Of a stretch of DNA of 64,000 nt, positions 11,106-60,780 are shown one piece after another. The first letter of the stretch is position 1. Each line of letters begins with the position of its first letter. The notes under the pieces are model-generated. The model searched no databases. It was not told the origin of the DNA and worked only from the letters and a program-made list of their open reading frames with translations. Source of the DNA: a virus; the IMG/VR virus record IMGVR_UViG_3300018876_000008, positions 1 through 64,000 of that record. One strand, 5' to 3'. The position numbers and the translations under genes are program-made.

Positions 11106-11962
11106 TAGAAAATATAGAAAAAGTATCTCAAGAGATTAGAAATATAATTGAGGATAAGAAAAAAGAATTAGAACTTTCTTTTATTGAAGAAGACCATATA
11201 TACTTTATGAAAGATAGAAATGGTAAAGTAAGAAATAATTTCCCTTCAGTATCTAAAGTTTTAAAACATTTTTATGAACCATTTCCTGCTGAGGATATTG
11301 CATATAAAAAAGCTAAAGGGGATAGAGTAGAGATGGAAAGATTGTTAGATGAGTGGGCTGCGGCAGGTTCATACGCAACTAATATGGGTTCACGTACACA
11401 CTTTATATTAGAGAAGAAGACTATTGATGATTATGGTGGTTATAAAGATGTGAGAGAACCTCTTTTCGAGTGTGATTTAGAGCAAGAAATGAGAAGTAAT
11501 TCTATGATTAAAGGGGGTGAAAAGTTTCTTAAATTGATGAAAGAAAGAGGAGCGTATCTATTAGATACTGAGATGGTCTTAGGTCATCCCGACTTAGGTT
11601 ATACTGGTCAGCCTGATAAAGTTTGGTTAATTATGAATAGAGAAAAAACAGGATTTGGTTTGGTTATAACTGATTGGAAAACAAACAAAGAAAAAAATTT
11701 TAAGACTAATCAATGGACTAAACCAATGAAAGAACCCTTTCAAGATTTACCAGATAATGCCTTAGGCCATTATAAATTACAATTACCTTTTTATGGTAGA
11801 TTAATTTTAAAAATGTTGGAGGGTACAAAGTACGAAAACATTTCACTTTTAGGATGTGTTATCGTATTATTAAAAGACAATACAGAGTTTGAAGAATTCA
11901 AAGTACCTTCTTCAGTTATTAATAAAGTTATGAGTTTGAAATTATCAGATTATGGAATTTAA
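11102..11962 (+). CDS. PD-(D/E)xK exonuclease (RecB/Cas4-like phage nuclease)
   Basis: PSVSKVL, GSRTH, GQPDKV, ITDWKT, QLPFY. The ATG at 11102 overlaps the primase stop; the ORF track starts at 11081. Confidence 0.75.
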   Translation: MIENIEKVSQEIRNIIEDKKKELELSFIEEDHIYFMKDRNGKVRNNFPSVSKVLKHFYEPFPAEDIAYKKAKGDRVEMERLLDEWAAAGSYATNMGSRTHFILEKKTIDDYGGYKDVREPLFECDLEQEMRSNSMIKGGEKFLKLMKERGAYLLDTEMVLGHPDLGYTGQPDKVWLIMNREKTGFGLVITDWKTNKEKNFKTNQWTKPMKEPFQDLPDNALGHYKLQLPFYGRLILKMLEGTKYENISLLGCVIVLLKDNTEFEEFKVPSSVINKVMSLKLSDYGI

Positions 11963-12563
11963 AGAAAGATTTCCTGATTTATTCAATAGTGAAAATATTG
12001 ATGAATGGAAAAAAAAGAATATTAGAAAAGAATTTTTATCTTACGAATGGGATATGATGGTTCAAGAAGTTGCACCTGATGTTTTTGAATTTCCATTATT
12101 TAATAAAGAATTTTGTGACAACTTCGTCAAAGTTTTAAATAGTATTAATTGGGACCAAATAAATAGATGGGGAACACCCGTCTACTCAACTAATTTAAGA
12201 AAGTTTGATATTGACAAAGTTATGACTCATATCATACATGAGTATATCTTTAGCATAATTCAGAAAGAATGGAAATTAGAGGGTAAAAAATGGAAATTAG
12301 TACAACCTGATAATAATATATTTAAACTCGAAGAGGGTCAAGAAATAAGACTTCATCATGACTACGTACATATATCATTATATTGTAAATTAGACGGAGA
12401 CAGTGAAGGTGGGGAGATAGTTTTTGATAAGTACGGTAAAACTATAACCCCTAAACAGGGCTATGTTTATATGTACCCTGGTCAAATTACCCATAGATAT
12501 GGGATAAAAAGAATAAATAAAGGTGACAGATATTTTTTAATGTCATATTGTATAAGTGATTAG
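11952..12563 (+). CDS. PLOD/lysyl-hydroxylase-like 2OG-Fe(II) oxygenase domain, paralogue 1 (distal Fe-ligand His replaced by Tyr)
   Basis: PDVFEFPLFNKEFCD, LHHD, EGG and YPGQITHRYG...GDRY align to the PLOD C-terminal domain. Confidence 0.8.
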   Translation: MEFKERFPDLFNSENIDEWKKKNIRKEFLSYEWDMMVQEVAPDVFEFPLFNKEFCDNFVKVLNSINWDQINRWGTPVYSTNLRKFDIDKVMTHIIHEYIFSIIQKEWKLEGKKWKLVQPDNNIFKLEEGQEIRLHHDYVHISLYCKLDGDSEGGEIVFDKYGKTITPKQGYVYMYPGQITHRYGIKRINKGDRYFLMSYCISD

Positions 12564-12717
12564 AGTATCGAATAACATATTATTAATTTTAGGTGTAACA
12601 TTTTTTCTAATTGGTAGGGAAATTGGAGGAATATTTCCTTCATTTATGTTTGGTTTATGTTTTGGAATGATATATCTAAATTACAGAGAAGATAAAAAAA
12701 ATAGTAATGGAAAATAA
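12556..12717 (+). CDS. Small two-helix membrane protein (53 aa, GTG start; not in ORF track)
   Basis: MIRVSNNILLILGVTFFLIGREIGGIFPSFMFGLCFGMIYLNYREDKKNSNGK. It fills the gap between the two oxygenase genes and overlaps both. Confidence 0.45.
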   Translation: MIRVSNNILLILGVTFFLIGREIGGIFPSFMFGLCFGMIYLNYREDKKNSNGK

Positions 12718-13342
12718 ACACAGTAATTATATTCATCCTGAATTATACACTTATTTTGATAATCCTGATGAGTGGGAAAAAAGATTCCTTAAAAATGAAG
12801 TTAAATCTAAAAATTGGGAATTATATGTACAAGAAGAATTATTGAACATATATACAATACCTGTATTTACTGATGAGTTTTGTGATTTTATTATAGAAGA
12901 GGCCGAATCTTGCAATTGTTGGACTGTAGATAGACACGAAAGTTATCCCACTACAGATATGGTTTTAAACACTATAGGTTTAGGTGAAACTTATCATGCT
13001 ATATTAAAAAAATATATATGGCCTTTAAGTAAAAAATTATTTAAATTGGAAGAAGAGTCATGGTTAGATATGAGAAGTGAAAACTTTATTGCTAGATATC
13101 ATCCATATGCTCAGTATCATTTATCACTTCATCATGATGCAAGTCAAATAACTACTGTAATTACTTTAAACGAAGATTTTGAAGGGGGAGGTACTTATTT
13201 CCCTAATCAAAACGCAAAACTAAAAGGTAAAAAGGGGGATATGTCTATTCATCCTGGTCAAATAACACATTGGCATGGGGGGTTACCCGTTGAGGCAGGT
13301 CAAAGATATATTATAGTCTCTTTTTGTTCATTAAAACGATAA
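12707..13342 (+). CDS. Stand-alone procollagen lysyl hydroxylase (PLOD/LH) catalytic domain, paralogue 2, intact active site
   Basis: HPELYTYFDNPDEW, PVFTDEFCD, PTTD, NFIARY, HHDAS, FEGGG, HPGQITHWHGGLP...RYIIVSF; collinear with the PLOD3 LH domain. Confidence 0.88.
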   Translation: MENKHSNYIHPELYTYFDNPDEWEKRFLKNEVKSKNWELYVQEELLNIYTIPVFTDEFCDFIIEEAESCNCWTVDRHESYPTTDMVLNTIGLGETYHAILKKYIWPLSKKLFKLEEESWLDMRSENFIARYHPYAQYHLSLHHDASQITTVITLNEDFEGGGTYFPNQNAKLKGKKGDMSIHPGQITHWHGGLPVEAGQRYIIVSFCSLKR

Positions 13343-16128: not shown

Positions 16129-16342
16129 CGAAATAAAAGAAGTTAGGTATTATCTAATACCCGGTGATTGGAGAATGGCGTTTAAGGTTATTGCAATTCT
16201 TGTTAGTTGGTATTTTAATAAATCTTTATTATGGGTAGTTATACACTATCTATTTGGATGGATATATTTAGTATATGTAGCTTTTATGGGTGGATTTTCA
16301 AATGGGGGACTTACCGATATTATAAATTATTATTTCAGTTAG
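16121..16342 (+). CDS. Small membrane protein
   Basis: SWYFNKSLLWVVIHYLFGWIYLVY hydrophobic core; likely start at 16121. Confidence 0.55.
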   Translation: MDDEIKEVRYYLIPGDWRMAFKVIAILVSWYFNKSLLWVVIHYLFGWIYLVYVAFMGGFSNGGLTDIINYYFS

Positions 16343-16764
16343 AACCATTTATTTTTCTTAAAATAATAAAACATACCGACCACAGTTATTACAGTTAATA
16401 CTAAGAAAATCCAAAATCCGTGGTCACCTGTCAGTAGAGGAACATCATCAAAGTTCATTCCCCACATTCCAGTATAAAAAGATAAAGGTAAAAATATCGT
16501 AGACCAAACAGTTAACAAATTTAACTTATGGTTCATCTTTTCACTTTGGTCTTTATCAAAAGCGACATCTAAATTATCCATAAGAGATAATAGAGTATCG
16601 ATATCTTTATCTTTAGGATTAGACAATTTATAAAGTAACATCTCTTTTTTAAGATGGTATAAATCCATCTCATCAAAGTTAGGTCTATTACTTTCTAAAC
16701 TTATCTCTAGTTCATTTATTTTTTTCTTAAACGATTCTATTTTTTCCATATATCCATTATCCAT
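16339..16764 (-). CDS. Truncated CorA/MIT-family Mg2+ channel (stalk + two TM helices)
   Basis: LTVWSTIFLPLSFYTGMWGMNFDDVP with the GMN signature, then a second TM and KKNKWF; only 141 aa. Confidence 0.8.
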   Translation of the reverse strand: MDNGYMEKIESFKKKINELEISLESNRPNFDEMDLYHLKKEMLLYKLSNPKDKDIDTLLSLMDNLDVAFDKDQSEKMNHKLNLLTVWSTIFLPLSFYTGMWGMNFDDVPLLTGDHGFWIFLVLTVITVVGMFYYFKKNKWF

Positions 16765-19567: not shown

Positions 19568-20487
19568 CAAAAATAATAGTTACAGGTGGAATGGGATTTA
19601 TAGGGTCTCATTTCGTTAATAAATTAAGTGAAAGGTTACCTAATAGTGAAATAACGGTAATTGATAAAATGACATATGCTGCGAATATTAATAACGTAAA
19701 ATGTGATTTTAATTTTATTGAAGAGGATATATGTAACTTAACTGAACTACCTAACTGTGACTATATAGTTCACTTTGCCGCCGAGTCTCATGTGGATAAT
19801 TCTATAGAAAATGGAAGACCATTTGTTCGTACTAATGTTGAGGGTACATTTAATTTGGTTGAACTAGCTAAAAATATAAAAGGTTTAAAAAAGTTCATCC
19901 ATATCTCAACTGATGAGGTTTACGGTGATATGGATTATTATGGTTCAGATTCAGTAGCTGAGGAAACATTTAATCTTATTGGTTCTTCATATTATTCAGC
20001 AACTAAAGCTGCGTCAGACTTAATTGTACAATCCGCAGGAAGAACTTTTGGTTTACCTTATGTTATTACAAGAACTTGTAATAACTTTGGAGAAAATCAA
20101 CACGAAGAAAAAATGATACCTAAAATTATAAAGAATATAAAAAATGATATTCCTATTCCGGTCTATGGTGATGGTAACCAAGTCAGAGAGTGGATACATG
20201 CAGATGACAACGCTGAGGCAATAATAAATATTATGTTATCTGAAGACACTATCAATGAAGTTTTCAACATAGGTAGTAGGTATCGTATAACTAATAATCA
20301 ATTGATTAATTTAGTTTCTGAAGTTGTTGGTAGAAAAGTTAAATTTGAGTATGTTGAAGATAGGTTAGGACATGATAGGAGGTACGCCTTGAATATTACA
20401 AAATATAATAGTAAGTTTGATAAGATAGACTATATTAATCTTAAAGAGTGGTTGAGTAAAATTATAACTAAAAATGAAGTGGGATAA
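19564..20487 (+). CDS. rmlB: dTDP-glucose 4,6-dehydratase
   Basis: TGGMGFIG, DKMTYA, HFAAESHVD, HISTDEVYG, YSATK, DRLGHDRRY. Confidence 0.9.
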   Translation: MTKIIVTGGMGFIGSHFVNKLSERLPNSEITVIDKMTYAANINNVKCDFNFIEEDICNLTELPNCDYIVHFAAESHVDNSIENGRPFVRTNVEGTFNLVELAKNIKGLKKFIHISTDEVYGDMDYYGSDSVAEETFNLIGSSYYSATKAASDLIVQSAGRTFGLPYVITRTCNNFGENQHEEKMIPKIIKNIKNDIPIPVYGDGNQVREWIHADDNAEAIINIMLSEDTINEVFNIGSRYRITNNQLINLVSEVVGRKVKFEYVEDRLGHDRRYALNITKYNSKFDKIDYINLKEWLSKIITKNEVG

Positions 20488-20929
20488 ATACTTTTTAAAT
20501 ATTGCAGAAAACGTAAAGTTAAAATCCAAAGACAGAAGGACTCAAATCGGCGCGGTAATAGTAGGAAAAGATAATGAAATTGTATCTACAGGTTATAATT
20601 CATTTCCAAGAGGTATTAATGATAATGTTGAAGAAAGACAAATTAGACCTGAAAAGTATTATTGGATTGAACATGCCGAGCGTAACGCAATTTATAATGC
20701 TGCACGTATTGGTGTTAGTTTAAGAGATACAACAATGTATCTAACCTGTGGAATACCATGTAGTGATTGTACTAAGGGTATCATAAGTTCAGGTATAAAA
20801 AAGATATACTGTAAAGTTCAGGATACCACAAGAAATAGAGAGCATTGGGATGAACACGCTAAAAGAAGTCTGCAAATGTTTAAAGAAAGTAATGTTGAAA
20901 TAATTTTTTATGATGAGAAAGAAAAGTGA
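20474..20929 (+). CDS. dCMP deaminase (ComEB-like)
   Basis: GYN, HAERNA and PCSDC zinc motifs. Confidence 0.9.
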   Translation: MKWDKYFLNIAENVKLKSKDRRTQIGAVIVGKDNEIVSTGYNSFPRGINDNVEERQIRPEKYYWIEHAERNAIYNAARIGVSLRDTTMYLTCGIPCSDCTKGIISSGIKKIYCKVQDTTRNREHWDEHAKRSLQMFKESNVEIIFYDEKEK

Positions 20930-21569: not shown

Positions 21570-21585
21570 GTTAAGTTTTTTTTAT

Positions 21586-21593
21586 TATCTTTG
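21586..21593 (+). promoter_or_regulatory. Bacteroidota-type -7 element (TAnnTTTG)
   Basis: TATCTTTG lies 18 nt before the ATG at 21612. No exact -33 TTTG. Confidence 0.45.
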
Positions 21594-21611
21594 TCCTCTA
21601 AACTTATAGAT

Positions 21612-21842
21612 ATGAAAAATATAGATTTAAATAAAGAGATGGCTTGGGTTACTTTCCTTCACGAGGGATGGGAAACTATATGGCATCCTGTAACTGATGT
21701 AAGCGGCAACCATCTTGAATTTGATGATGGTATTATGGACCATTGTCGTTCTCAGTTCAACCGAGAAGGGAATTGGGTAAGTTTTGGAATAGCACCAACT
21801 AGCCAAATGATTTTAAAAAATTCTGTAAGAGATAACCTTTAA
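21612..21842 (+). CDS. Hypothetical protein
   Basis: Start refined to MKNIDLNK; the track's TTG start lies inside the promoter element. Confidence 0.55.
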   Translation: MKNIDLNKEMAWVTFLHEGWETIWHPVTDVSGNHLEFDDGIMDHCRSQFNREGNWVSFGIAPTSQMILKNSVRDNL

Positions 21843-21858
21843 AACAAAAGAGAGTAAT

Positions 21859-22098: not shown

Positions 22099-22110
22099 AA
22101 CAAAAGAGAG

Positions 22111-23488: not shown

Positions 23489-23489
23489 A

Positions 23490-25671: not shown

Positions 25672-25676
25672 ACCAT

Positions 25677-25704
25677 AAAAAAACCCACCGATTGGTGGGT
25701 TTTT
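25677..25704. terminator. Bidirectional intrinsic terminator
   Basis: AAAAAAACCCACC-GATT-GGTGGGTTTTT between convergent genes. Confidence 0.85.
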
Positions 25705-40776: not shown

Positions 40777-42210
40777 ATGTACTGTAGAGATAATAGTTAT
40801 AGTGATGGTATCGACAGATTTATAGTTATTACTGTCGCTACAGAAAATAACAAAGAATTAGACCGATTTAGAGAATCGTGTCATATTAATAATATACCCT
40901 ACAAGATTATTGGTTTAGGTCAAGAATGGACAGGAGGTGAGGCTAAAGATGGGGTATTGTTACAACCTGGAGGAGCACAAAAAATAAATCTTCTTAAGAA
41001 AGAATTAGAGGATTATCCTAATTTATCTAATCACATAATTTTATTTACAGATTCATATGATGTAATAATTAATTCAACACCAAGTGAAATAGTTAGTAAA
41101 TTTAGGACTATGAAATCACCCGTAGTATTTTCAGCTGAAAAAACTTGTTGGCCGAAAAAAGATTTACAAAATAAGTACCCACCATCAACTACGGAGTATA
41201 AATTTTTAAATTCAGGAGGATTTATTGGTTACGGAGACCACATAATTAAAATTGTAAATAAAATTGATGTAAGCAATGATTACGATGACCAACTATATTA
41301 CACTGAAAGATACTTTGAGTCTTTAGCTGAAGATAAGAATATCATTTTAGATAATAATCAAAATATATTTCAAACCCTTAATGAATCCTTAGATGATGTT
41401 TTGGTGAAGGACGGTAAAGTTTTTAACAGAATAACAAATACGTATCCTTTAATAATTCATGGAAATGGTGGTTCGTCAATAAAAAATGTCCTAAATGATT
41501 ATTACCGCAGGTTATTTGATAAAGATGTTACAACTATAAATTATTTTAAGAAGGAAGATGACTTGGAGGATTTTGAGGATAATGTTAATATAGGATTATT
41601 TCTTGATGAGGAAGTCCCTAACATTAATCAAACTTTCGACCACATTAGATTTTTAAAATACCCTAAAGATAAAATATCCCTCACAATATATTATTCTGAT
41701 AACACACACAAGTATGATATTGATTTGTTTGAGAAAAAATATTCACATATTTTTAAAGAGTTTTATGTAAAATTTAATGACGATGGTAAAATAAAGTCAC
41801 GAAAAGACTTTTTGATTAATTCTTATGGTCTGTCTGATTATACAGTTTTAATGGAATCAAATCACATTTTTAGAAATAATAAATCTTTAGGGTTGATTAT
41901 CAAAGAGTGTGAAGGTATAATAACTCCTATGATTCATAAAGAAGGTAGTGATTGGGTTAATTTTGATTGTGAAAAGACTAAAAAGGATTCTTACAGGACT
42001 TATGAAACTAAAGGAATATGGGAGGTAAATTATCTTTACGGTATACACGTCATAAAAAATGATTTAATTCCTTACTGTGTAAATTCTTTATATATTAATT
42101 ACGATAACTATACAGACCCTAATTGGGACATTATGTTGTGTGATAATTTAAAAAGTAGAGGGGAAACTCTACAAATTTCAAATACAAACTATTACGGAGG
42201 AATTATATAA
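40777..42210 (+). CDS. PLOD3/LH3-like collagen hydroxylysine glycosyltransferase (GT + accessory domains, no hydroxylase domain)
   Basis: VITVAT, GLGQEW.GG, GGAQK, FTDSYDV, FSAEKTCWP, FLNSGGFIG, DDQLYY, IFQTLN, IHGNG; accessory domain LKYPKD, PMI....W.NF, GIWEV.Y, ISN...YG. Confidence 0.88.
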   Translation: MYCRDNSYSDGIDRFIVITVATENNKELDRFRESCHINNIPYKIIGLGQEWTGGEAKDGVLLQPGGAQKINLLKKELEDYPNLSNHIILFTDSYDVIINSTPSEIVSKFRTMKSPVVFSAEKTCWPKKDLQNKYPPSTTEYKFLNSGGFIGYGDHIIKIVNKIDVSNDYDDQLYYTERYFESLAEDKNIILDNNQNIFQTLNESLDDVLVKDGKVFNRITNTYPLIIHGNGGSSIKNVLNDYYRRLFDKDVTTINYFKKEDDLEDFEDNVNIGLFLDEEVPNINQTFDHIRFLKYPKDKISLTIYYSDNTHKYDIDLFEKKYSHIFKEFYVKFNDDGKIKSRKDFLINSYGLSDYTVLMESNHIFRNNKSLGLIIKECEGIITPMIHKEGSDWVNFDCEKTKKDSYRTYETKGIWEVNYLYGIHVIKNDLIPYCVNSLYINYDNYTDPNWDIMLCDNLKSRGETLQISNTNYYGGII

Positions 42211-47904: not shown

Positions 47905-50900
47905 ATGGCTAAAGACGTAAGAATAGTACCACAACCCACAGGAACTACACTTCCTTATATTTTATTTGAAAATGCAAATGGTGATGTTATGTCACTTAAT
48001 GTTAGTGATGATGGTCGCATAGTATTTTCAGGTGCCACTCATGGTAATAATTTAGTAACCATAGATAGTGACCGTGTTAATATTAAAGGCTCAATACATA
48101 TGGGTAATGACATGGGATTCAACGGGGTTATGACTATTACCGATACTGGAGGGTGGAAAGGTAGTACAGTCGGATTAAAAGGTAATAAAGGTACTGTAGG
48201 ACCAACAGGTCCAAAAGGACATCAAGGACCAACAGGCCCCGCAGGTGCAAGAGGGACAACCGTTAAAGGTGAAAGTGGTGATAAAGGAAGAAAAGGTCTT
48301 AAAGGTCTTAAAGGGCTTAAAGGTAATATTGGTACCAGTAGAATATTTTATAATGATGGAGATAAAGGGTTAAAAGGAAAACAAGGACCACAATCAACTG
48401 ATAAAGGAGATAAAGGACTTAAAGGTCTTAGAGGTGTTAAAGGCGAAATAGGTCAATTAGGTCCAATAGGTATACAAGGACCACAAGGCCCTGTGGGTTT
48501 AAAAGGAATTAACTCAGATAAAGGTATAGTTGGTGATAAAGGGGATAAAGGATTAAAAGGTCTAAAAGGTTTAAAAGGGTTAAAGGGTCCTGTCGGATTA
48601 AAAGGTAAAAAAGGTATTTTGGGACCACAAGGTCCTATTTCTCAAGCCGGTAATGTTGCGGATAAAGGAACAAAAGGTCCAAAAGGGCCACAAGGTCAAA
48701 AGGGACCAAAAGGAATTCAAGGACCACAAGGTACAAAAGGGTTAACCGCAAACACAGGAGGTCAAGGACCAATAGGGCCTAAAGGGCCAACAGGGAGTAA
48801 AGGTATTAAAGGACTTCGTGGTAACAAAGGGGTTAAGGGACTTAAAGGACTTAAGGGGCTTAAAGGTCGTAAAGGTCTTATTGCGGTAACTGGTGATAAT
48901 GGTCAACAAGGCCCAATCGGTCAACAAGGTCCCATTGGTTTTAAAGGTGATAAAGGACTTAAAGGTTTAGAAGGACCAAAAGGACCAAAAGGTATCAAAG
49001 GTCCTCAAGCCGAAACAACCGTTCAAGGACCACAAGGTTCACAAGGACTACAAGGAAATACTTCTACCGATAAAGGTATCAAAGGTCAGAAGGGATTAAA
49101 AGGTAATAAAGGTATAAAAGGATTAAAACCTAATAGTGGTGAAAGAGGGAATATAGGAGAAACAGGACCTAATGGGCCTCAAGGTATTCAAGGTCCGAAA
49201 GGAGATGATAAAGGTCAAAAAGGTTTTAAAGGTATAAAAGGTAAAAAAGGAGTTAAAGGAGCCATAGGTCCACAAGGTGAAATTGGTAATCAAGGTAATA
49301 TTGCTACCACTGGTGATAAAGGTCTTAAAGGATTATTCGGTCCAACAGCATTTAAAGGATTAAAAGGGTTAAAAGGTAATAAAGGATTAAAAGGTCCAAA
49401 AAATATTCAAGGACCACAAGGACCTGTCGGGTTGGATGCGGATAGAGGTTCGATAGGTAATCAAGGACTTCAATCGACCGATAAAGGATTAAAAGGTCCA
49501 AAAGGTCCAAAAGGAATTAAAGGATTAAAAGGTTTAAAACCTGGAAGAGGACCCCAACCTAGTGTAGGGTCGAGGGGAGTTCAAGGACCACAAGGACCAC
49601 AAGGACCGCAAGGGCCTACATCAGCAGATAAAGGATTTAAGGGACTTAAGGGACTTAAAGGTATTACAGGTGTAAGAGGAGAACAAGGTATAGGTGGACA
49701 AAGAGGAACTCAAGGGACACAAGGACCAACAGGAAATAGAGGTAATACAGGTACTAGCTCAGATAAAGGAAATAGAGGTCCCCAAAGTACTGAAAAAGGA
49801 TTAAAAGGACCTGACGGAGGTAGAGGACCTCAATCGACCGATAAAGGACAAAAGGGACCTCAAGGAAGTAGAGGGGCAAAGGCCTCAACAGGTGACCAAG
49901 GACCAACCAGTACTGATAGAGGGAATCAGGGTGAAACCGGTCCTAATGGGCCAAATTCAACTGATAAGGGACAAAAAGGACCTAGAGGAGGAATAGGTAC
50001 TCAAGGACCTAAAGGTTATAAAGGACCACAAGGACCTGCTAACAATGACAGAGGCCCGGTAGGTGATAAAGGTTTTAAAGGACCAAAAGGAAATAGAGGT
50101 GCTATCGGTGGACAAGGTTCAGTGGGTAACACTTCTACCGTTAAGGGTTCTATAGGTCCCTCTAATACTACAAAAGGTCTTAAAGGAATTAAAGGTAGAA
50201 AGGGTAGTGAAGGTCCAAGAGGACCAGAAGGCCCTCAAGGACCAAGAGGTACAGCATCTACAGTTAAAGGATATAAAGGACCTAGTAATAGTGTTAAAGG
50301 TATTAAAGGGTTAAAAGGTTTAAAAGGTTTAAAGGGCCCAAGAGGACCACAAGGTCCAAGAGGACCACAAGGTAGTACATCTACAGTTAAAGGTTCTATA
50401 GGAAATCCTAATAACTTGCAGGGTTTAAAAGGTTCAAAAGGTTTAAAAGGTCTAAAAGGTAGTACAGGACCAAGAGGTCCACAAGGGGCGAGAGGTAATG
50501 TGTCGACAGTTAAAGGATATAAAGGTTTAGCCAATAATACAAAAGGAAATACAGGAGAAACGGGACCTCAAGGTTTAAAAGGTCGACAAGGTAGTCAAGG
50601 ACCACAAGGTCCAAGAGGAACGGCTTCTACTGTTAAAGGACCAAAAGGATTGACAAATACAACTAAAGGTCCAAAAGGTCTTAAAGGGTTAAAAGGACTT
50701 AAAGGAACCAAAGGTCGAAAAGGAGACAAAGGGTTAATAGGTAATCAGTCCACAGTCAAAGGATATAAAGGACCTAATAATACTACAAAAGGACCTAAAG
50801 GACCTAAAGGGTTAAAAGGGTTAAAAGGAAATTTTGGACCTGCAGGATTTAAAGGATTTAAAGGTCCACAATCAACAGTCAAAGGTGCTATAGGTGAACA

Positions 50901-51765
50901 AGGAGTTAAAGGACTAAAAGGAATAAAAGGATATAAAGGACCTGACGGAGGTAGAGGACCTCAAGGAAATAAAGGTGTAAAAGGTCCTGTTGGAAGACCT
51001 GGACCTACCGGACCAACAAATACAACTAAAGGTTTAAAAGGACCAACAGGCCCAAATGGACCTCAAGGACCGAGAGGAGGAATAGGACCACAAGGTATTA
51101 AAGGTCAGAGAGCCCAACAAGGACCATTAGGAGATGTTGGTGATGAGTATGGTCCAAAAGGTCGTAAAGGTGCTATAGGACCTACCAATACAGATAAAGG
51201 TCCAAAAGGACCTATCGGTCGTGATAATCTAACTAAAGGTGCGAAAGGACCTAAAGGTGATATAGGTCCTGTCCTCGTAAAAAATGGACCTGGTGACCAA
51301 GGACCAACAGGTCCAAGAGGAAATAAAGGACCCAAAGGTCCGATAGGTAGAACGGGACCAACAGGACCTATAGGGGGTACAGGACCACAAGGTCCACAAG
51401 GTCCAAGAGGGGCTCAAGGGGTACAAGGACCTCAAGGACCTGCTTCAGATAAGAGAGTTAAAAATAATATTAAGTCTTTAAAGGGTAATTTATCTAAATT
51501 AAAAAATATTAGAGGTGTTAAATTTACATGGAAGGGTGGAATAAATCACAGATTTAATATAAAAGGAAATGATATCGGTTTTATCGCTCAAGAAATTGAT
51601 AAAGTTATACCTGACGTGGTATTTACTGGTGAAGACGGATTCTTAAAATTAGAATACGGTAAGTTAGTTGCTATTGGGATTGGTTCAATACAAGAGCAAC
51701 ATACACGTATAACTCAACTTAAGGAGAGAATTAACATATTGAAATCAAAAGTTTTAAATGGGTAG
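47905..51765 (+). CDS. Giant Lys-rich collagen-like fibre protein 1 with C-terminal peptidase S74 intramolecular chaperone
   Basis: Gly-X-Y from aa 90 to 1180; SDKRVKNNI, GFIAQE, LEYGKL and a terminal coiled coil. Confidence 0.88.
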   Translation: MAKDVRIVPQPTGTTLPYILFENANGDVMSLNVSDDGRIVFSGATHGNNLVTIDSDRVNIKGSIHMGNDMGFNGVMTITDTGGWKGSTVGLKGNKGTVGPTGPKGHQGPTGPAGARGTTVKGESGDKGRKGLKGLKGLKGNIGTSRIFYNDGDKGLKGKQGPQSTDKGDKGLKGLRGVKGEIGQLGPIGIQGPQGPVGLKGINSDKGIVGDKGDKGLKGLKGLKGLKGPVGLKGKKGILGPQGPISQAGNVADKGTKGPKGPQGQKGPKGIQGPQGTKGLTANTGGQGPIGPKGPTGSKGIKGLRGNKGVKGLKGLKGLKGRKGLIAVTGDNGQQGPIGQQGPIGFKGDKGLKGLEGPKGPKGIKGPQAETTVQGPQGSQGLQGNTSTDKGIKGQKGLKGNKGIKGLKPNSGERGNIGETGPNGPQGIQGPKGDDKGQKGFKGIKGKKGVKGAIGPQGEIGNQGNIATTGDKGLKGLFGPTAFKGLKGLKGNKGLKGPKNIQGPQGPVGLDADRGSIGNQGLQSTDKGLKGPKGPKGIKGLKGLKPGRGPQPSVGSRGVQGPQGPQGPQGPTSADKGFKGLKGLKGITGVRGEQGIGGQRGTQGTQGPTGNRGNTGTSSDKGNRGPQSTEKGLKGPDGGRGPQSTDKGQKGPQGSRGAKASTGDQGPTSTDRGNQGETGPNGPNSTDKGQKGPRGGIGTQGPKGYKGPQGPANNDRGPVGDKGFKGPKGNRGAIGGQGSVGNTSTVKGSIGPSNTTKGLKGIKGRKGSEGPRGPEGPQGPRGTASTVKGYKGPSNSVKGIKGLKGLKGLKGPRGPQGPRGPQGSTSTVKGSIGNPNNLQGLKGSKGLKGLKGSTGPRGPQGARGNVSTVKGYKGLANNTKGNTGETGPQGLKGRQGSQGPQGPRGTASTVKGPKGLTNTTKGPKGLKGLKGLKGTKGRKGDKGLIGNQSTVKGYKGPNNTTKGPKGPKGLKGLKGNFGPAGFKGFKGPQSTVKGAIGEQGVKGLKGIKGYKGPDGGRGPQGNKGVKGPVGRPGPTGPTNTTKGLKGPTGPNGPQGPRGGIGPQGIKGQRAQQGPLGDVGDEYGPKGRKGAIGPTNTDKGPKGPIGRDNLTKGAKGPKGDIGPVLVKNGPGDQGPTGPRGNKGPKGPIGRTGPTGPIGGTGPQGPQGPRGAQGVQGPQGPASDKRVKNNIKSLKGNLSKLKNIRGVKFTWKGGINHRFNIKGNDIGFIAQEIDKVIPDVVFTGEDGFLKLEYGKLVAIGIGSIQEQHTRITQLKERINILKSKVLNG

Positions 51766-54700
51766 AGATATTAACATAAATCCAACAGGTGGTACAATTC
51801 ATTTTTCAGGTCAATCAAATACTAAGATTGATGTGAAATATACTAGCGGTGAATTAAATTTTAATACTCACTTAGGTAACGACTTTAAAATAACGAATCA
51901 TTTAGAACTTGATAGTTTAAAATTTATGGCTGAAACCTCAGTTGTAAAAAATAATAGTGATGAATTAATTGACGACCGTGGTAACTGGAAAGGGCATGCA
52001 ATGAATATGGGAGGGCCAACAGGACCAACAGGGCCACAAGGACCTGTAGGGGCAAAAGGTGATGAACCATCTGCAGGTCAAAGAGGTGCAAAAGGTGAAA
52101 AAGGTATTAAAGGACAGACTTCATTAGAACAAGGACCTACGGGTGACGTTGGACCAAAAGGTCTTAAAGGTATTAAAGGTGAGAAAGCCTCCCAAGGACC
52201 ACAAGGACCTGCAGGGGTAAAAGGTTTAATTGGACCACAAGGTTCTGAAGGACCAGCTGGACCTGCCGCGATTAAAGGGGATATTGGGACACAAGGACCT
52301 AAAGGGTTAAAAGGTTTACAAGGTATTAAAGGTTCAATAGGTAATTCAATTAAAGGTCCTATAGGTGCAGATGCAGATAAAGGTAATACAGGACCTACCG
52401 GTAATAATAAAGGAGATATTGGACCTAAAGGTATTGTTGGGGATAAAGGTCCACAAGGACCAATTGGTCTTACAGCAAATTTAGATGTTTATGTTTTCTA
52501 TGATGCAACATCAATGCCAAGTGATAAGGCTAAAGAGGCTTCTCAAAGTGTTAGAGATTGGTTCCAAACGGTAAACGGTAATGGTGACATTAACAAATTA
52601 TACGAGGGTGTAATCGGTAAAAACAATGTTAATGGTGAAAACTGGTTATGGTGGGCATCTTATCCATATCTTGGTTCACTTAGTGGTGGTACGTTGAGTA
52701 ACGGAACACAGTTGAGTGAATTTAATAGTGCGGTACCTAACGCCACTTATGATTCCGATTATTGTAAATCTAATTCGGGTGGTAATTGTGTACCAAGAAA
52801 TTCACAATTTAATGATGGTCTAACCACATATAGAAGAATTAACAGAGGTCTTAATTTAGATACTGGTGCTGTAGAAAATATTTCTCAAGGGGTTCCTTTT
52901 GACCATAGTAATTTAAATAATACAGAAACATCGGGACAGGGTTCATTCGGTGGTGATAATACTAATTATTTAGTTATCATAGTCGCCGATGAGTCAGATG
53001 GTATTGTTGGTTTATATCATGGACAGTTAGGTGGGACACCAACCAACGCTACTAAGAGTGATTTATATAATAAACCATTTGAACTGAATGGTGATTATTG
53101 GAATAATAGTGCCGGTACTGAATATACTAATAGATATTTACACGACTACTGTGCATATATACAAGTTTATGAAGACATTATATCTAATAGACAAGGAAAT
53201 GCAAGAGGTTTAATATATCCTGTAGTAAATCCACTTAGAGGTACCGCCACATATGCATTTGTTCAACATGCGGTTGGTGCTGTTGAAGGTGAAACCATTA
53301 CTACTCAAGAATTTTTAAATAGTTACGGAGACCAAATGGATTCAGTTGGTCCTGAAAATTTAAATTTAACTGCATTAACACATACTAATGTATATTCAGC
53401 TTTAGCTTCTGAAAATTGTTATACGAGTTTAAATGTAGATTTTAAAAATGGGGCGGGGTTAAAACACTTTGGTTTTGGAGTTGACCCAACCGTAGATAAT
53501 TTTACTGAAGAGGTGGTAACAAATGCGTTAACATCATTTTTACGTCAACAAGGTGATACAGGTGACCAAGGTAATAAAGGTATTACAGGTGATGATAAAG
53601 GAACAAAAGGTCTTAAAGGTATAAAGGGACTAAAAGGTATTAAAGGACAAAGAGGTCCTAATACGGATTCAGGTTTAAAAGGTGCGATAGGTGACCAAGG
53701 ACCTGTTGGTATTGACGGTCCAATAGGTAACTTAAAAGGACCCAAAGGTGAAGTAGGTGTTGTTGGGCCAAAAGGTTTAAAAGGTCCTGATGGTAGTATA
53801 GGTGATTCACCAAAAGGTGCTGTTGGGTTAACAGGTGACCAAGGACCTACAGGTGGTAGAGGTGAAACATCGACAGATAAGGGTCAAAAAGGTATTAAAG
53901 GACAAAGAGGTGTTAAGGGATTAAAAGGATTAAAAGGTATCAAAGGGTTAATAGCAGTTCAAGGGGATGTAGGACCAACAGGACCTCAATCAGATAAAGG
54001 AATTGTTGGTGATAAAGGTAATAAAGGGCTTAAAGGTTTAAAAGGATATAAAGGTATCAAAGGAATTAAAGGTCCTATTGGTATAATTGCCGACCAAGGA
54101 GATACAGGACCCGTTTCTCAAAACGGTGAAGGTGCAGACAAAGGATTCAAAGGACTTAAAGGTATAAAAGGATTAAAAGGTAAGAAGGGTATTGAAGGAC
54201 CTAAAGGACCTACAGGTACATCTTCGGAAGAAGGTACTGTTGGACCTACAGGTGAAAAAGGAGAAAGAGGACCACAAGGAGATAAAGGTAATAAAGGTTT
54301 AAAAGGTCTTAAAGGTAAAAAAGGTATAAAAGGTACTAAAGGACTTAAAGGTTTAATTGCCAGTCAAGGAGATAAAGGACCACAAGGGCCAATTGGTGTT
54401 AAAGGTGAGCAAGGAAATAAAGGGGACAAAGGACTTAAAGGTATTAAAGGTCAAAAAGGTTATAAAGGATTAACCGGTCCTCAAGGTAACAAAGGTTTAA
54501 TGGCTTCTCAAGGAGATACAGGACCACAAGGACCGGCAAGTATTAAAGGTCAAAAAGGACTTAAAGGTATTAAAGGTCAAAAAGGATATAAAGGGTTAAG
54601 AGGTAATAAAGGTCCAAAAGGTTATAAGGGATTAAAAGGTATTACAGGTGATAAAGGATTTATTAGTACAGTTACCGGAGATAAAGGTATTAAAGGTCAA

Positions 54701-56941
54701 AAAGGGTTTAGAGCAACCGATGGAGATAAAGGTATAAAAGGGCAAAAAGGTTATAAAGGTAATCAAGGTCCAAGAGGAACTGCATCTACAGTAAAAGGTT
54801 TAAAAGGTCGTAAAGGTTTTAAAGGTAATAGGGCTACTGATGGTGTAAAAGGATTTAAAGGATTTAAAGGATTAAAAGGGTTACGAGGACCTTTGGGACC
54901 ACAAGGTAGTCAGGAGGGCCCAAAAGGATTAATAGGTGCAGAAGGCCCTATAGGTCCTACTGCCGATAAAGGTTTAAAAGGATTAAAAGGTATTAAAGGA
55001 CCCAAAGGACCTAAAGGACCTAAAGGATTAAGGGCAGGTGCAGTTGGACCAACAGGACCTAAAGGACCAATCGGACCTACTGCAGAAAAAGGATTTAAAG
55101 GTCTAAAAGGTCCAAAAGGTTATAAGGGACCTAAAGGACCTACAGGTTCCACAACAGGTGCTGAAGGAGATACAGGACCACAAGGTCCAACAGGTCCTAC
55201 CGCTTACAAAGGGTTTAAAGGGATAAAAGGATATAAAGGTCCGAAGGGTCCAAAAGGACCTCTTGGTTTGACAACAGGACCTAAAGGGTTAAAAGGACCT
55301 ATAGGTCAAACAGGACCAACTGCGAATAAAGGCCAAAAAGGATATAAAGGACCAAAAGGATATAAAGGACCTAAGGGTCCACTTGGACCGACTACAGGGG
55401 ATAAAGGACAAAAAGGTAAGAAAGGTTCGATAGGTGATAGTGCAAATAAAGGATTAAAAGGTCCAAAAGGGCCTAAAGGTTATAAGGGGCCTAAAGGAGA
55501 AAAAGGTCCTCATTCAAACAATAAAGGACCCGTAGGACCTCAAGGACCACTCGGACCTACCGCTGATAAAGGTGAACAAGGACCTAAAGGACCAATTGGA
55601 AATAAAGGACCTAAAGGACCAAAAGGAAGTGCAACCGGTGATAAAGGGCAACAAGGAGAGACAGGACCACAAGGACCTCTTGGAAAATCAGGACCAACTG
55701 GAGGTGTTGGAGATAAAGGTCCGAAAGGTGCCAAAGGTCCTCAAGGGTTAAATGGGATACAGTCAGGACCTACAGGACCACAAGGACCTGTTAATAACAC
55801 AAAAGGACAAAAAGGATATAAGGGACCTGAAGGTCCAATAGGTATACAAGGTCCCGAAGGAGAAATCGGTAATACGGAGGGAGCTCAAGGACCTAAAGGT
55901 AGTGTAAGTACGGTTAAAGGTCCTAAAGGACCTAAAGGTTATAAAGGACTGAAAGGATTATACGGTCCCAAAGGTTTAAAGGGTAGACAAGGACCGACTG
56001 ATATTAAAAAATTTATTGGTCAACAAGGTGATAAAGGACCAAGAGGAACAGATTCTACAGTTAAAGGACCGACAGGTCCACAAGGGGCTAAAGGGCCAAA
56101 AGGACCCATAGGACCTAAAGGAGCTAGAAAAACTCAAGGACCGACAGGTCCACAAGGGGCTAAAGGGCCAAAAGGTTACAAAGGACCTACAGGGCCACAA
56201 GGTCCAAGAGGTCAAAAAGGACGTGTAGGTGCAAGTGGACTTAGTGGTCCACAAGGGGAAAAAGGATTTAAAGGTAGGAAAGGACCTGCGGGACCTTCAG
56301 GTGTATCGTGTTATTCACACGATGTTGCACTTATAAGTGATAAAGCATTACCATGTAGCTTTTGTGATAGAGATGCGCCACCGTGTGGTGAGGAACCCAA
56401 CGTTACAGTATATTCTCCTAATTCAGGGGCATTAAGTGCGGGTAATTTTGTTTATACTGACTCAAATTGTACCGAATGTAGAACACCGAGACCTGGTTGT
56501 TTTGATGATAAGTCAGGCCAATTTACATTATGGGACGCTGACCATAATAATAGTTCTATACATACTTGGGATTTACAATTTTGTGGATTATTAAAGTGTG
56601 CGGATTGTTCCTTCTCAGATGAAAGACTTAAAACTGGTATTAGAACAATATCTAATTCATTAGAATCCTTATTAAACATTCAAGTTACTGAGTACGATTG
56701 GAATGAGAAATATTCGGGTTACGATTTCTTAAAAGAAAGACAAAAACTTCACTCTATTGGTATGATTGCACAAGATATCCAAAAAATATTTCCTGAAGTA
56801 GTTTACAAAAGAAGTGATGGTTACTACGCTATTAAATATTTCAAATTAAATGCACTAATAATAGAATCGATTAAGTCTCACCAAGTATTTATAGATGATA
56901 TTGATGAACAAATAAAATGGTTAAAAACACAAATTAATTAA
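51758..56941 (+). CDS. Giant Lys-rich collagen-like fibre protein 2 with inserted vWA-like domain, Cys-rich domain and S74 chaperone
   Basis: Gly-X-Y at aa 86-239 and 599-1517; insert with VFYDATSM and VIIVADESD; [15 protein letters not shown]. Confidence 0.88.
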
Positions 56942-59900
56942 TGGCTAATATTATTATATACCCTACAGGGAGTACTACTAATAGTAATCCTCACATTATA
57001 TTTACAGGTTCAGGTAGTAATGATTATACTATTGAAATAGATACTAGTGGTGATTTAATATTTAAATCGTCTAGCAATATTTTTAAAATTAAAGATAGTG
57101 CTCAACCATTTCAATTTGACGGTGAAGTAGATGTGGTTAATAGTGAATTATATGTGGGTAATACTATGGTTGTTGATTCAAATGGTAATTGGGTTGGAGT
57201 ATTATCAGGATTAAAAGGAATACAAGGACCAATTGGTGCAAAAGGAAGAGTTGGTGACCAAGGACCTAAAGGTGCAAAAGGTCAAGAAGGTCCTGTTGGT
57301 GAGCAAGGAGATAAAGGTAATCTAGGTATTAAAGGAAGAATAGGTTCTACAGGAATTAAAGGTGCAAAAGGACCTATTTCAGTTAAAGGTGATAAAGGTA
57401 ATAGAGGGCCTCAAGGGGAAGACGGAGCGGTAGGACCTAAAGGTTTAAAAGGTGTAAGACCTTCAGACAGTAGTAAAGGTATAAAAGGACCAAAAGGTTT
57501 AAAAGGAGAAACATCTAACGATAAAGGTTTAAAAGGACCTATAGGTTTTAAAGGTATTAAAGGTAATAAAGGACCGAAACAAGTTACAGGACCCCAAGGG
57601 TCTCAAGGAGGTATTTCGCCAAAAGGACCTATTGGGTTACAAGGTCCGACAAGTACTGACAAGGGTCAAAAAGGACCTAAAGGTATTAAAGGAGTAAAAG
57701 GTCAGAAAGGTATTGACGGTAATAAAGGTCCTGAAGGTGATAAAGGTTTAAGATATACTGATGGGGACCAGGGGCCACAAGGACCTACAGGTCCTACTGC
57801 AGACAAAGGTATTAAAGGTAACAAAGGTGTTAAGGGGTTATTAGGTCCACAGGGAATACAAGGACCTGATGGTACTGTTGGTACTCAAGGACCACAAGGA
57901 CCCTTAGGACCACAGGGTGTACAATCTTCAGATAAGGGAGATAAAGGTATTAAAGGTATTAAAGGTAGGAAAGGAATTAAAGGTCCTAAACAAGTACGTG
58001 GTAATATTGGTATACAAGGTGATAAAGGTTTTATAGGGCCACAAGGACCTGAAGGACCAGCAGGACCTGCAGCCGTTAAAGGACCTATAGGTCCACAAGG
58101 GCCGATTGGGCCAAAAGGTTTGGAAGGGAACCGAGGGCCACAAGGTTCATCATTAAAAGGACCAACAGGTTCGGGAGGTGAGAAAGGTCCGCAAGGTGAT
58201 AATAGTACAGATAAAGGTCCTATAGGTATAAAAGGACCGATAGGTATAAAAGGTTTTAAAGGACCTAGAGGACCACAATCAGAAGTAAGTGTTGGTGATA
58301 AAGGTAATACTGGACCCATAGGACCACAAGGACCGGCTAGTTCCGATAAAGGACTAAAAGGGCCTCAAGGGTTTAAAGGGTTAAAAGGTAAGAGAGGACC
58401 ACAAGGACCACAAGGAAATAATGAAAAAGGATTTATAGGTGATGGTGCACAAGGGGGAGATATAGGTCCAACAAATACTGATAAAGGACACCAAGGACCA
58501 ACTGGACCTGTCGGACCAAAAGGTTTTGTAGGTACTAAAGGTAGTATAGGTACGTCTCCTCAAGGTGATGTAGGAGATGGTGGTGACCAAGGACCTACTG
58601 CAAGTCAAGGGCCAGCAAGTACCGATAAAGGACTAAAAGGTTTAAAAGGATTTAAAGGGCCAAAAGGGTTTACAGGCCCTCAAGGAGGTATAGGACCTAG
58701 AATTACAGGACCCACAGGACCTAATGGACCTACCGGACCAACAAATACAGATAAAGGTTTAAAGGGTTTTCAAGGACCAACAGGTCCTACTAATACGGAT
58801 AAAGGCACACAAGGGTCTAAGGGGCCAAGAGGACCTCAAGGTGGTCAAGGACCAACAGGACCTAACGGACCTAAAGGTATAACAGGAGGTCAAGGACCTC
58901 AAGGACCTACTAGTACTGATAAAGGTGTTAAAGGTCAAAAAGGATATAAAGGACCTGAAGGGCCAACAGGAGAAAAGGGACCATTAGGACCAAAAGGATT
59001 ACAAAATAATACACAAGGAGACCAAGGACCCGTATCAAGTGATAGGGGTGATAAAGGGCCTAAAGGTATTAAAGGTATCAAAGGTGTTAAAGGACCTAGA
59101 GGTGAACAAGGAGCCAAGAATATTACAGGAGCAAAAGGACCAACAGGACCCCAAGGACCTGCTGGAAATAATAAAGGACCAATTGGACAATTAGGACCCA
59201 TAGGGTTTACAGGTCCACAAGGTTTAAAAGGTAGTACAAGTGATATAGGTAATAAAGGTCCGATAGGACCACAAGGACCCGCGAGTACGGATAGAGGGGT
59301 ACAAGGTAATATAGGTGCATTTATTGGACAAGGCCCCCAAGGACCTCAAGGACCAAATAGTTCAACAGGTCTTGTTGGTGCTCAAGGACCAATAGGACCT
59401 GCGGGTAACAATAAAGGACCAATCGGCCCTCAAGGTAATAGAGCGGATAAAGGACCTATCGGTCCTGTAGGGGAGAAGAATAATACTGGTGGACAAGGAC
59501 CAACCGGCCCACAAGGACCGGCTAGTAGTGATAGAGGACCCCAAGGACCCCAAGGTAATAAGGCACAAACAGGTGACCAAGGACCAATAGGTCCGCAAAA
59601 TATAGTAGGTGCTCAGGGACCCATAGGACCACAAGGGCCGGCTAGTTCAGACAAAGGACCAAAAGGACCATTAGGACCTATAGGACCTATAGGACCACAA
59701 GGCTCTATAGGTTCCAAGAATGCGACTGGTGGTGTTGGTGATAGAGGACTTCAAGGAGACCAAGGACAAAATAGAGGACCTCAAGGAGACCAAGGACCAA
59801 TACAGTCAGGAGGTTCTCAAGGTATACAAGGACTAAAAGGGTTAAAAGGACTAAAAGGAGGTAGAGGTACTCAAGGTCCAAATAGTTCTGATAAAGGACC

Positions 59901-60780
59901 AATAGGTCAAAAAGGGCCTAGAGGTCCACAAGGACCAAGAGGAGGAAATGGTATACCAGGACCACAGGGTCCAACAGGACCTAACGGACCGATTGGACCT
60001 GAAGGTAATAAAGGTATTAAAGGAATAAAAGGTTTTATAGGACCTAAAGGTCCCAAAGGACCACAAGGCCCACAAGGCCCAACCGGCCCACAAGGACCAC
60101 TAGGACCGTTAGGGTCAAGTAGTACAGATAAAGGAGAAAAAGGTTCAAAAGGACGTAAAGGACCGATAGGGATAACAGGAGCTAAAGGGCCAAAAGGTTA
60201 CAAAGGACCTAAAGGTTCAATAGGTCTTGATGGTGCGAATGCAGATAAAGGTATTAAAGGTCTAAAGGGTCCTTTACAACTTAAGGGACGTAAAGGTCCT
60301 ATTGGACCACAGGGTCCCACAGGCCCTAAAGGGTCACAAGGATTAATTGGACCTAAAGGTTATAAAGGTCCTACAGGTGGTGGAGGACTTCAAGGAGCCA
60401 CAGGACCTCAAGGACCTGCCGGAGCACAAGGACCAGCAGGAGGACCATCTGACAAAAGATTAAAAGAAAATATTGTTACCATTGATGAAGCACTTAAAAA
60501 AGTATTGAAATTAAGAGGAGTAGAATTTATATGGAGAAAAGAAGGTATTAATGGTGAAATCATTGATGAGGGTGGTAGAAAAGATATTGGTGTTATTGCA
60601 CAAGAAGTTAAAGAGGTTTTACCTGAATTAATTCTTGGTGACGAAGAAAGTGCTTATAGAGTAAGATACGGTGAAATGATATCAATATTATTTGAGGCTA
60701 TTAAAGAACAAGAATCAATACTAGATTTAAAAGAAGATGAGTTAGAAGAGTTAGAGAGAAAATTTAAAGATAATCAGTAA
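56941..60780 (+). CDS. Giant Lys-rich collagen-like fibre protein 3 with C-terminal S74 chaperone
   Basis: Gly-X-Y from aa 90 to 1169; [22 protein letters not shown]. Confidence 0.88.

Follow-up and report, generated by a model that had tools for sequence, protein, structure and literature searches.

The first 64 kb of the IMG/VR virus record IMGVR_UViG_3300018876_000008 (64,000 nucleotides, hereafter the window, of a 169,337 bp record with a CheckV completeness of 56%) contain genes for long collagens together with genes for relatives of the enzymes that modify collagen lysine (Table 1). These comprise a protein with glycosyltransferase (GT) and accessory (AC) domains of the PLOD type (P0001, a GT-AC protein), a stand-alone lysyl-hydroxylase (LH) domain (LHa, P0002), a diverged paralogue of the latter (LHb, P0003) and three collagen fibre proteins (A, B and C), whereas a gene for a GT25/COLGALT-type protein is found in the same record outside the window. 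An initial annotation of the window proposed a split, animal-like PLOD system acting on the collagen fibres of the phage itself. Hydroxylysine and its glucosyl-galactosyl glycoside are textbook features of animal collagen, and mimivirus is, to our knowledge, the only non-animal case that has been characterised.

Table 1. Genes of the candidate collagen-modifying system and other features of the phage genome. Positions are those of the window, except for the GT25/COLGALT-type protein.
Feature	Position	Strand	Length	Remarks
LHb (P0003), diverged LH-domain paralogue	11952..12563	+	203 aa	LH3 and L230 matches, fold
LHa (P0002), LH domain with full Fe(II)/2-oxoglutarate site	12707..13342	+	211 aa	
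PLOD-type GT plus AC domain (P0001)	40777..42210	+	477 aa	PF25342, LH3 and R699 matches
Collagen fibre A	47905..51765	+	1286 aa	~89-aa N-terminal domain, 1091-residue interrupted Gly-X-Y, C-terminal S74 intramolecular chaperone
Collagen fibre B	51758..56941	+	1727 aa	collagen with 359-aa non-collagen insert, Cys-rich C-terminal part, S74 chaperone
Collagen fibre C	56941..60780	+	1279 aa	1080-residue interrupted Gly-X-Y, S74 chaperone
GT25/COLGALT-type protein	genome 148568-149317, outside the window		249 aa	PF01755, 52.1 bits (cut-off 24)
SprB-repeat protein	5306-7228		640 aa	one of four large higher-GC open reading frames (1-9524) without other family match
Sigma-70-family factor	27222-28031			
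Full DnaJ	35994-36947			
GlnII-type glutamine synthetase	44781-45917			399 bits, under the cut-off of 500
Thioredoxin	46295-46615			

The GT-AC protein P0001 matches the Pfam family PF25342 ('PLOD GT domain') over residues 14-246 with an E value of 3.6e-75 (252.8 bits, cut-off 27) and aligns with residues 14-492 of the human LH3 chain, which correspond to the GT and accessory domains, with an E value of 1.2e-59. Also, a whole-length phmmer match extends to residue 456 of mimivirus R699 (E 8.1e-43, ~27% identity). The second Rossmann-like domain, following the GT domain, is recognised by the AC profile (E 2e-77), and the AlphaFold model (pLDDT 85.9) shows two alpha/beta domains, with LH3 (E 1.5e-42) and R699 (E 1e-37) returned by Foldseek. 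A comparison of the GT domain of this model with the human GT domain (PDB code: 6wfv) gives a TM score of 0.87 and an rmsd of 2.3 Å, the whole-chain TM score being only ~0.47 because the orientation of the domains differs. The motifs pointed out by the initial annotation are all present (DSYD at residue 92, CWP at 124, FLNSGGFIG, DDQL at 170 and HGNG at 228), as are the AC domain and the end of the chain at ISNTNYYGGII. Among 17 phage, viral and animal sequences, W51, D92-S-Y-D95, C124-W-P126, D170-D-Q172 and H228-x-N-G231 are invariant. Their LH3 counterparts are W75, D112/Y114/D115, W145, D190/D191 and H253 (numbering offset taken from the P0001-LH3 alignment), and we take these residues to have the roles assigned to them in LH3 structures. 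In this alignment, the D-x-x-D and His of the Mn2+ site (D92/D95 and H228), the Trp residues (W51 and W125) and the poly-Asp element (D170-D171-Q172) are all accounted for. The stop codon of P0001 comes after the AC domain and the LH gene is located 27 kb upstream, so that GT, AC and LH do not form one chain. Neither P0001 nor P0002 has a hydrophobic signal-like N-terminal stretch, as read from the sequence, which fits an action in the cytoplasm. By family, P0001 is a PLOD-type GT-AC protein and a candidate UDP-glucose:galactosylhydroxylysine glucosyltransferase.

In the case of LHa, the full hydroxylase domain described by the initial annotation is borne out by a match of P0002 residues 6-207 to the LH domain of human LH3 (chain 6teu_A, residues 500-713, E 2.1e-31) and by a match to that of mimivirus L230 (E 1.1e-23), the next families after LH domains being prolyl 4-hydroxylases with an E value of 6e-4. 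The protein carries HPELYTYFDNPDEW starting at residue 10, and its Pfam matches are OGFOD2-like and 2OG-FeII_Oxy_3. The iron triad H142-x-D144 plus H190 and the 2-oxoglutarate (2OG)-binding R200 align with the triad and the Arg of LH3; moreover, a comparison of 21 homologues shows no variation at H142, H190 and R200 and hardly any at D144. This points to LHa as a complete lysyl-hydroxylase domain, predicted to act on the Lys of X-Lys-Gly. In the sequence and structure searches, LH3, R699 and L230 come out on top, and not unrelated oxygenases or glycosyltransferases, the outcome that the initial annotation had named as a reason to abandon its proposal. A search of P0001, P0002, P0003 and the GT25 protein against NCBIfam gave no match.

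LHb ends 144 bp upstream of LHa, and this tandem is present in each relative that has LHa. Its closest solved relatives are also the LH domains of human LH3 (E 1.2e-9) and L230 (E 2.7e-7), and the AlphaFold model (pLDDT 88) gives Foldseek TM scores of 0.82 to the LH3 domain and 0.79-0.82 to L230. Although the LH fold is kept, the 2-His-1-carboxylate triad is incomplete: of 38 orthologues, with identities as low as 38%, 37 have Tyr183 in place of the third Fe ligand, and the motif reads T-H-R-Y-G instead of the T-H-x-H-G of LHa and all active LHs. The first ligand is changed from His to Arg in five of the 38 and the 2OG-binding Arg is variable, while H136, D137 and H181 are invariant. Because of this third ligand, LHb is probably a conserved non-catalytic protein of the LH fold; it is classed here as an LH-fold paralogue, and the label of hydroxylase is not supported. 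A prediction of the LHa-LHb heterodimer with ESMFold2 reached a score of 0.57, against 0.04 for the best of three controls, which the tool grades as 'weak support' (contact agreement between runs of at least 92%, partner pLDDT of at least 86). The mark used by this tool is reached by 58/80 solved complexes and 2/110 mismatched pairs, and scores of 0.60 or lower that reach it include 7/80 solved complexes and both passing mismatched pairs. Since solved LH-domain homodimers exist, the predicted LHa-LHb pairing may mirror likeness alone.

The closest solved relatives of the GT25 protein are structures of human COLGALT1/GLT25D1 (PDB codes: 9evj and 8zgc chain U; PMC12003778), with an E value of 2e-8 and an aligned E-D-D motif. 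However, the match spans residues 73-236, so only one GT domain is covered, with ~160 aligned residues at low identity. This suggests a putative hydroxylysine galactosyltransferase, the acceptor not being readable from sequence.

The three collagens are recognised by Pfam both as Collagen (E 4.7e-98, 1.5e-111 and 7.2e-91 for A, B and C, respectively) and, at the C-terminus, as Peptidase_S74 (E 2.1e-13, 3.1e-14 and 3.9e-16). All three C-termini match tail-fibre chaperone families of PHROG, reaching an E value of 8e-26 against its tail-fibre families in the case of fibre A. The genes are packed closely, the start of B overlapping the end of A and the start of C overlapping the stop of B. The collagenous spans comprise 1091, 1432 (1073 when the insert is subtracted) and 1080 residues, with 36-43 short interruptions. 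It is to these spans, and not to the whole proteins, that the ~1080 residues initially given for the collagens correspond, and the helices are comparable in length to animal fibrillar collagen. These near-equal lengths (1073-1091) are compatible with fibres of equal length or with a heterotrimer. Fibre B has 14 Cys residues and A and C have none; those seen are in the non-collagen region between the helix and the S74 domain.

The composition of the repeats is also as first described, with Lys dominating the Y position and Pro rare in it. The fraction of Lys at Y is 0.42 in A, 0.49 in B and 0.33 in C, compared with 0.01, 0.01 and 0.00 at X, and 120, 146 and 88 G-x-K-G sites are counted (354 in total). 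Pro represents 0.33-0.44 of X positions and 0.00-0.01 of Y positions, and for lack of Y-position Pro, prolyl 4-hydroxylation cannot aid the stability of these collagens. Thr occupies 9-11% of Y positions; in other bacterial and phage collagens, Thr and Gln are the residues that dominate Y, as Rasmussen et al. reportedly observed in 2003 and as is also the case in the relative G009. The near confinement of Lys to Y, the position on which LH enzymes act, supports the collagens as the substrate. Regarding expression, portions of the GT-AC and collagen genes are present in metatranscriptome contigs from four runs and two habitats, in some cases identical to the window. This is a weak hint, given that DNA carry-over is possible and many of the contig joints are repeat artefacts, and gaps in this coverage carry no information.

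Based on these proteins, we consider it probable that the collagen fibres of the phage are modified by its own enzymes, within the bacterial cytoplasm, through a pathway of the animal and mimivirus type that involves four separate gene products. LHa, as an Fe(II)/2-oxoglutarate dioxygenase, would hydroxylate the Y-position Lys of Gly-X-Lys-Gly, with ~350 candidate sites per three-chain set; the GT25/COLGALT-type enzyme encoded at ~148.6 kb would attach the first sugar to the hydroxylysine, and the GT-AC protein would attach the second one. LHb, having lost the canonical iron site, would most likely assist LHa as a partner without catalysis of its own, or serve as a subunit that binds the substrate. 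Trimerisation of these chains, once modified, would be aided by their C-terminal S74 chaperones and give virion fibres of ~300 nm. Within this scheme, each enzymatic step, the sugars used, what LHb does and where on the virion the fibres are placed are inferred. The homologous mimivirus enzymes have the activities proposed and function when made in E. coli (PMC9546862, PMC12279948). This interpretation is supported by each of the computational tests applied to it, and what the analysis shows directly is homology, conserved catalytic residues, sites of the substrate type, and co-occurrence and fusion of the modules in relatives.

The initial annotation read P0001 and P0002 as the halves of one PLOD chain. 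Both are indeed collinear with LH3 (residues 14-492 and 500-713, respectively), with the break exactly at the AC/LH boundary, and fused GT-AC-LH and GT25-GT-AC-LH proteins exist, as would be expected if a true fission of PLOD had left two proteins that re-associate non-covalently into an LH3-like GT-AC-LH assembly. Such an assembly is nevertheless improbable. R699 shares the GT-AC architecture and needs no partner protein, being active as a homodimer (PMC12279948). The two phage genes are separated by 27 kb, and neither the stand-alone LHs nor the phage GT-ACs fall among the fused forms, each of the two groups being a distinct clade. These relationships come from unrooted trees obtained by a quick maximum-likelihood search (80 rows for GT-AC and 49 for LH). 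In the GT-AC tree, P0001 belongs to a clade of 12 phage-type sequences (SH-aLRT 98), with a separate clade for the animal-type proteins (95), and giant-virus-type GT25-GT-AC(-LH) proteins account for the remaining half; at least 25 changes of architecture are required. In the LH tree, the stand-alone domains, including LHa and LHb, are found together (89), LHb orthologues being a long-branched clade with 100% support within this group. The LH domains of animals (97) are joined by the fused forms of giant viruses (95), and the LH domains of cyanophage GT25-GT-LH proteins constitute a separate long branch. With the phage clades separate from that of the animal proteins, there is no support for a recent fission of an animal-type PLOD, and the term 'split PLOD' overstates the case. 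The phage genes are better read as unfused lineages of each module, the GT-AC protein having an architecture like that of R699. A more far-reaching scenario, in which a freely recombining viral toolkit, instead of an invention of animals, was the pool for both the fused animal PLOD and the giant-virus enzymes, phages bear ~300-nm fibres with glycosylated hydroxylysine and LHb is a non-catalytic pseudoenzyme for collagen binding or dimerisation, is offered tentatively and seems to us rather unlikely as a whole.

Relatives of P0001 provide a view of how these modules are combined. An exhaustive search found 2725 homologues, and home-made domain profiles were run on 365 retrieved proteins. Among these, the GT-AC architecture is found in 110, a GT domain with a methyltransferase insert followed by AC in 37, GT25-GT-AC, GT25-GT-AC-LH and the animal-type GT-AC-LH in 20 each, and GT25-GT-LH in eight, with a few showing rarer orders that include LH-GT25-GT-AC. 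The nearest clade of P0001 itself holds GT-AC and GT25-GT-AC proteins with ~60% identity. The repeated independent fusion of LH, PLOD-GT, AC and GT25 modules is strong evidence for one shared pathway, and the variety of these fusions ties the modules together functionally. The LHb paralogue, the GT25 protein outside the window and the many module combinations in relatives are new with respect to the initial annotation.

The insert is an S-adenosylmethionine (SAM)-methyltransferase domain of 145-200 aa (PF13489/PF08242/PF13649) placed after about profile position 185 of the PLOD GT domain; examples are the protein at 52731-54611 (-) of the relative G011 and proteins P0044-P0100 (692 aa class). 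It could carry out an extra methylation of the same substrate. Also, very large fused forms are represented by the G019/L022 viral contigs and by proteins P0321 and P0353. They comprise GT25-GT25-GT-AC-LH fusions of 1137-1140 aa, beside which the contig ends with a collagen gene, and chains of ~1800 aa in which GT25 is present three times and GT twice.

In a scan of viral contigs, relatives of P0001 were found at 91 loci, and 20 records were searched in full. Collagen is found in 16/20, including arrays of collagen open reading frames (ORFs) of ~930-1770 aa in 11/11 close relatives (G001-G011). LH-like genes are present in 16/20 and GT25 in 12/20, the records without them being fragments 14-41% complete. 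With the exception of G009, the collagens of the sampled relatives have Y-Lys of 0.28-0.49 and X-Lys of at most 0.02. For example, the 99% complete G011 encodes three collagens and no more (of 1352, 1315 and 1619 aa, with Y-Lys of 0.37-0.41) along with one GT-AC protein with insert, an LHa-LHb tandem and one GT25. Similarly, the near-complete G012 and G013 have collagen (Y-Lys 0.32-0.35), LH, GT25 and PLOD-GT. The co-occurrence of the enzymes with Lys-rich collagens, which the initial annotation suggested checking, thus stands for close relatives and for these three near-complete genomes, but not for G009, whose collagens are Lys-poor. In a different group of viruses, the 614-aa protein AXN58392.1 of Synechococcus virus S-PRM1 (MH629685.1, 122963-131804) is a GT25-GT-LH fusion, and three small genes (~1.5 kb) upstream of it AXN58396.1, of 1824 aa, has a 59-triplet collagen segment with Lys at 23 and Thr at 22 of the Y positions; both are deposited as hypothetical proteins. 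S-PRM1 is cultured, and is a ready experimental model.

This recurrence bears on whether collagen is the target at all. The enzymes could instead act on envelope glycans or lipopolysaccharide (LPS) of the host, on other proteins or on free metabolites, their co-occurrence with collagen reflecting shared ancestry: in this genome the enzyme genes are not neighbours of the collagen genes, bacterial GT25 proteins are a family of LPS biosynthesis, R699 also forms kojibiose from free glucose (PMC12279948), and many phage 2OG oxygenases have an unknown role (PMC2938197), with three more in this genome. Against this, the association recurs, even with adjacent genes, in groups unrelated to one another (a jumbo phage of the Flavobacteriia type, T4-like cyanophages and giant viruses), the closest characterised homologues all work on collagen, and Lys is restricted to the position that the hydroxylase can use. 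A target other than collagen is for these reasons very improbable.

A second alternative keeps the collagens as the substrate and changes the chemistry, which could be glucose attached directly to hydroxylysine, other sugars, methylation, or the action of some of the glycosyltransferases on Thr. L230 makes glucosyl-hydroxylysine (PMC9546862), the methyltransferase insert is present in 37/365 relatives, Thr accounts for a share of the Y positions in the window, and the genome encodes an RmlB-like dehydratase and another SDR protein. Moreover, G009 (65,666 bp, 22% complete) couples a 920-aa GT25-GT(insert)-AC fusion at 19347-22109 to three adjoining collagens at 25522-34377 that are rich in Thr and Gln, with Y-Lys of 0.01-0.11. 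In that lineage, Thr may be glycosylated instead of hydroxylysine. On the other hand, the donor- and acceptor-site residues common to LH3 and R699 are invariant in P0001, and in most lineages GT25 is accompanied by PLOD-GT or fused to it, which would be expected if two sugars are added in succession. A different chemistry in the window phage is accordingly held to be unlikely, and hydroxylation followed by two sugars is preferred.

Several observations weigh against this preferred pathway. The genes are dispersed, at 12 kb, 41 kb, 48-61 kb and 148 kb, with no operon. The similarity of the GT25 protein to COLGALT1 is modest (E 2e-8, residues 73-236 only), and its family also includes LPS enzymes according to the Pfam description. 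No close LH was found on the 22%-complete fragment of G009, so that glycosyltransferases of the G009 type may not always need hydroxylysine. Also, the glucose that L230 attaches is bound directly to hydroxylysine (PMC9546862), the identity of the sugar not being readable from sequence, and the host cytoplasm is assumed to supply the pathway with free Fe(II) and a reductant.

Among characterised systems, that of mimivirus has the same set of modules. Its toolkit comprises collagens, L230 (GT25-like plus LH), which gives hydroxylysine and glucosyl-hydroxylysine, the GT25 protein R655 and the GT-AC protein R699 (PMC9546862, PMC12279948), and the phage system is homologous to it module for module. 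However, the latter belongs to a bacterial virus, has all modules as separate genes, includes LHb and has helices of ~1080 residues with no Y-position Pro. R699 (PDB codes: 9dyt, 9dzs and 9e92) is similar to P0001 in being a PLOD GT plus AC without LH, of ~450-480 aa, from a virus with further genes for collagens, an LH and a GT25 enzyme; it glucosylates galactosyl-hydroxylysine, is active as a homodimer and has been expressed in E. coli (PMC9546862, PMC12279948). It differs in coming from a giant virus of amoebae and in belonging to another GT-AC clade, as judged via the moumouvirus-size homologue L023. The initial annotation had cited L230 (PDB codes: 6ax6 and 9nev) as the viral precedent. 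It is a viral collagen lysyl hydroxylase that works in E. coli (PMC9546862), but its LH is fused to a GT25-like domain, whereas the phage LH stands alone with a separate GT25; the counterpart of P0001 is R699 and not L230. In the case of human LH3/PLOD3 (PDB codes: 6fxk, 6fxr and 8zgc), GT, AC and LH are homologous to the phage modules, with the Mn site, the acceptor residues, the Fe triad and the 2OG Arg conserved, although LH3 is one chain of 738 aa of the secreted pathway and the phage has separate GT-AC and LH proteins plus a degenerate LH paralogue.

Among tailed phages, the cyanophage fusions (S-PRM1 AXN58392.1 and S-CAM9) have the three catalytic modules next to Lys-bearing collagen-like proteins, but these are single chains of 614-690 aa without AC, with LH domains of a separate clade and short collagens (59 triplets in S-PRM1). 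Other dioxygenase families are predicted to hydroxylate bacterial collagen-like proteins (PMC2938197, a comparative study). No description of PLOD-type enzymes in tailed phages was found in the full-text literature (subscription-only papers were not covered). The initial statement that no phage equivalent had been described holds in this sense for papers, while homologues were already deposited in S-PRM1 and S-CAM9, annotated as hypothetical.

Other genes that could be related to such a pathway were also considered. Three further 2OG-oxygenase-like ORFs are located beyond the window, at 89228-89989 (-), 138162-138743 (+) and 139109-139825 (-) of the genome. The first was rejected as a member of the system, as its match is limited to the C-terminal half of the LH domain and its best solved relatives are prolyl 4-hydroxylases (E 3.5e-5); it weakly resembles bacterial prolyl 4-hydroxylases and L230. 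The third matches 2OG-FeII_Oxy_4 and Ofd1-type domains. The initial annotation had assigned a supply of sugar donors to an RmlB-like protein (19564-20487) and an SDR protein (23436-24356), and help in folding to DnaJ. These roles are unsupported: the former reaches 294.9 bits where the cut-off for dTDP-glucose 4,6-dehydratase is 365, the latter is weakly heptose-epimerase-like and also under the NCBIfam cut-offs, and both were rejected as donor suppliers. Neither of the two is a GalE equivalog, no tie to the collagens was found for them, and nothing links DnaJ to the system.

With respect to the genome as a whole, contigs with near-identical proteins reach 412-430 kb and the relative G011 has 297 kb; the window phage is therefore a jumbo tailed phage. 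The GC content of the window is ~29%, climbing to 40-42% over the collagen genes only, and DNA near-identical to the window was found in salt-marsh and seawater metagenomes of many studies. The window also encodes a Dam-type methylase and an amidase, and no tRNA gene was found in its 64 kb. A 141-aa ORF at 16339-16764 (-) has a Pfam match to the CorA Mg2+ channel (E 1.8e-22) that is limited to the C-terminal membrane part of the latter. The segment 20474-21569 encodes a dCMP deaminase and, after it, a LOG/TIGR00730-family (SLOG) protein, with a PNKP-type HAD phosphatase close by, at 22111-22569.

SprB repeats, present in one protein of the window, are known from gliding-motility adhesins of Bacteroidota. 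The window phage is also like the 'moraphages', large aquatic phages assigned to Flavobacteriia (PMC12619734), in GlnII, DnaJ, size and habitat. A host among Flavobacteriia is suggested by that single SprB-repeat protein and this resemblance; a host search through the phage DnaJ gave as its sole match a protein with 29% identity in a metagenome-assembled genome. The work on moraphages lists four core groups of glycosyltransferases and nowhere mentions collagen or hydroxylases (PMC12619734).

Finally, the small, signal-peptide-free LH, GT25 and GT-AC proteins would be candidates for producing hydroxylated and glycosylated recombinant collagen in E. coli, where production of such collagen with the human enzymes is still not possible (PMC9546862). 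The fused and unfused forms constitute a natural map of cooperating modules and bear on the origin of animal PLOD and COLGALT. If the proposed pathway is true for phages of marine Flavobacteriia and of cyanobacteria, this chemistry would take place in the bacterial cytoplasm and its products would be displayed on virions abundant in the sea, with a bearing on the stability of the fibres, their resistance to proteases and the recognition of receptors.

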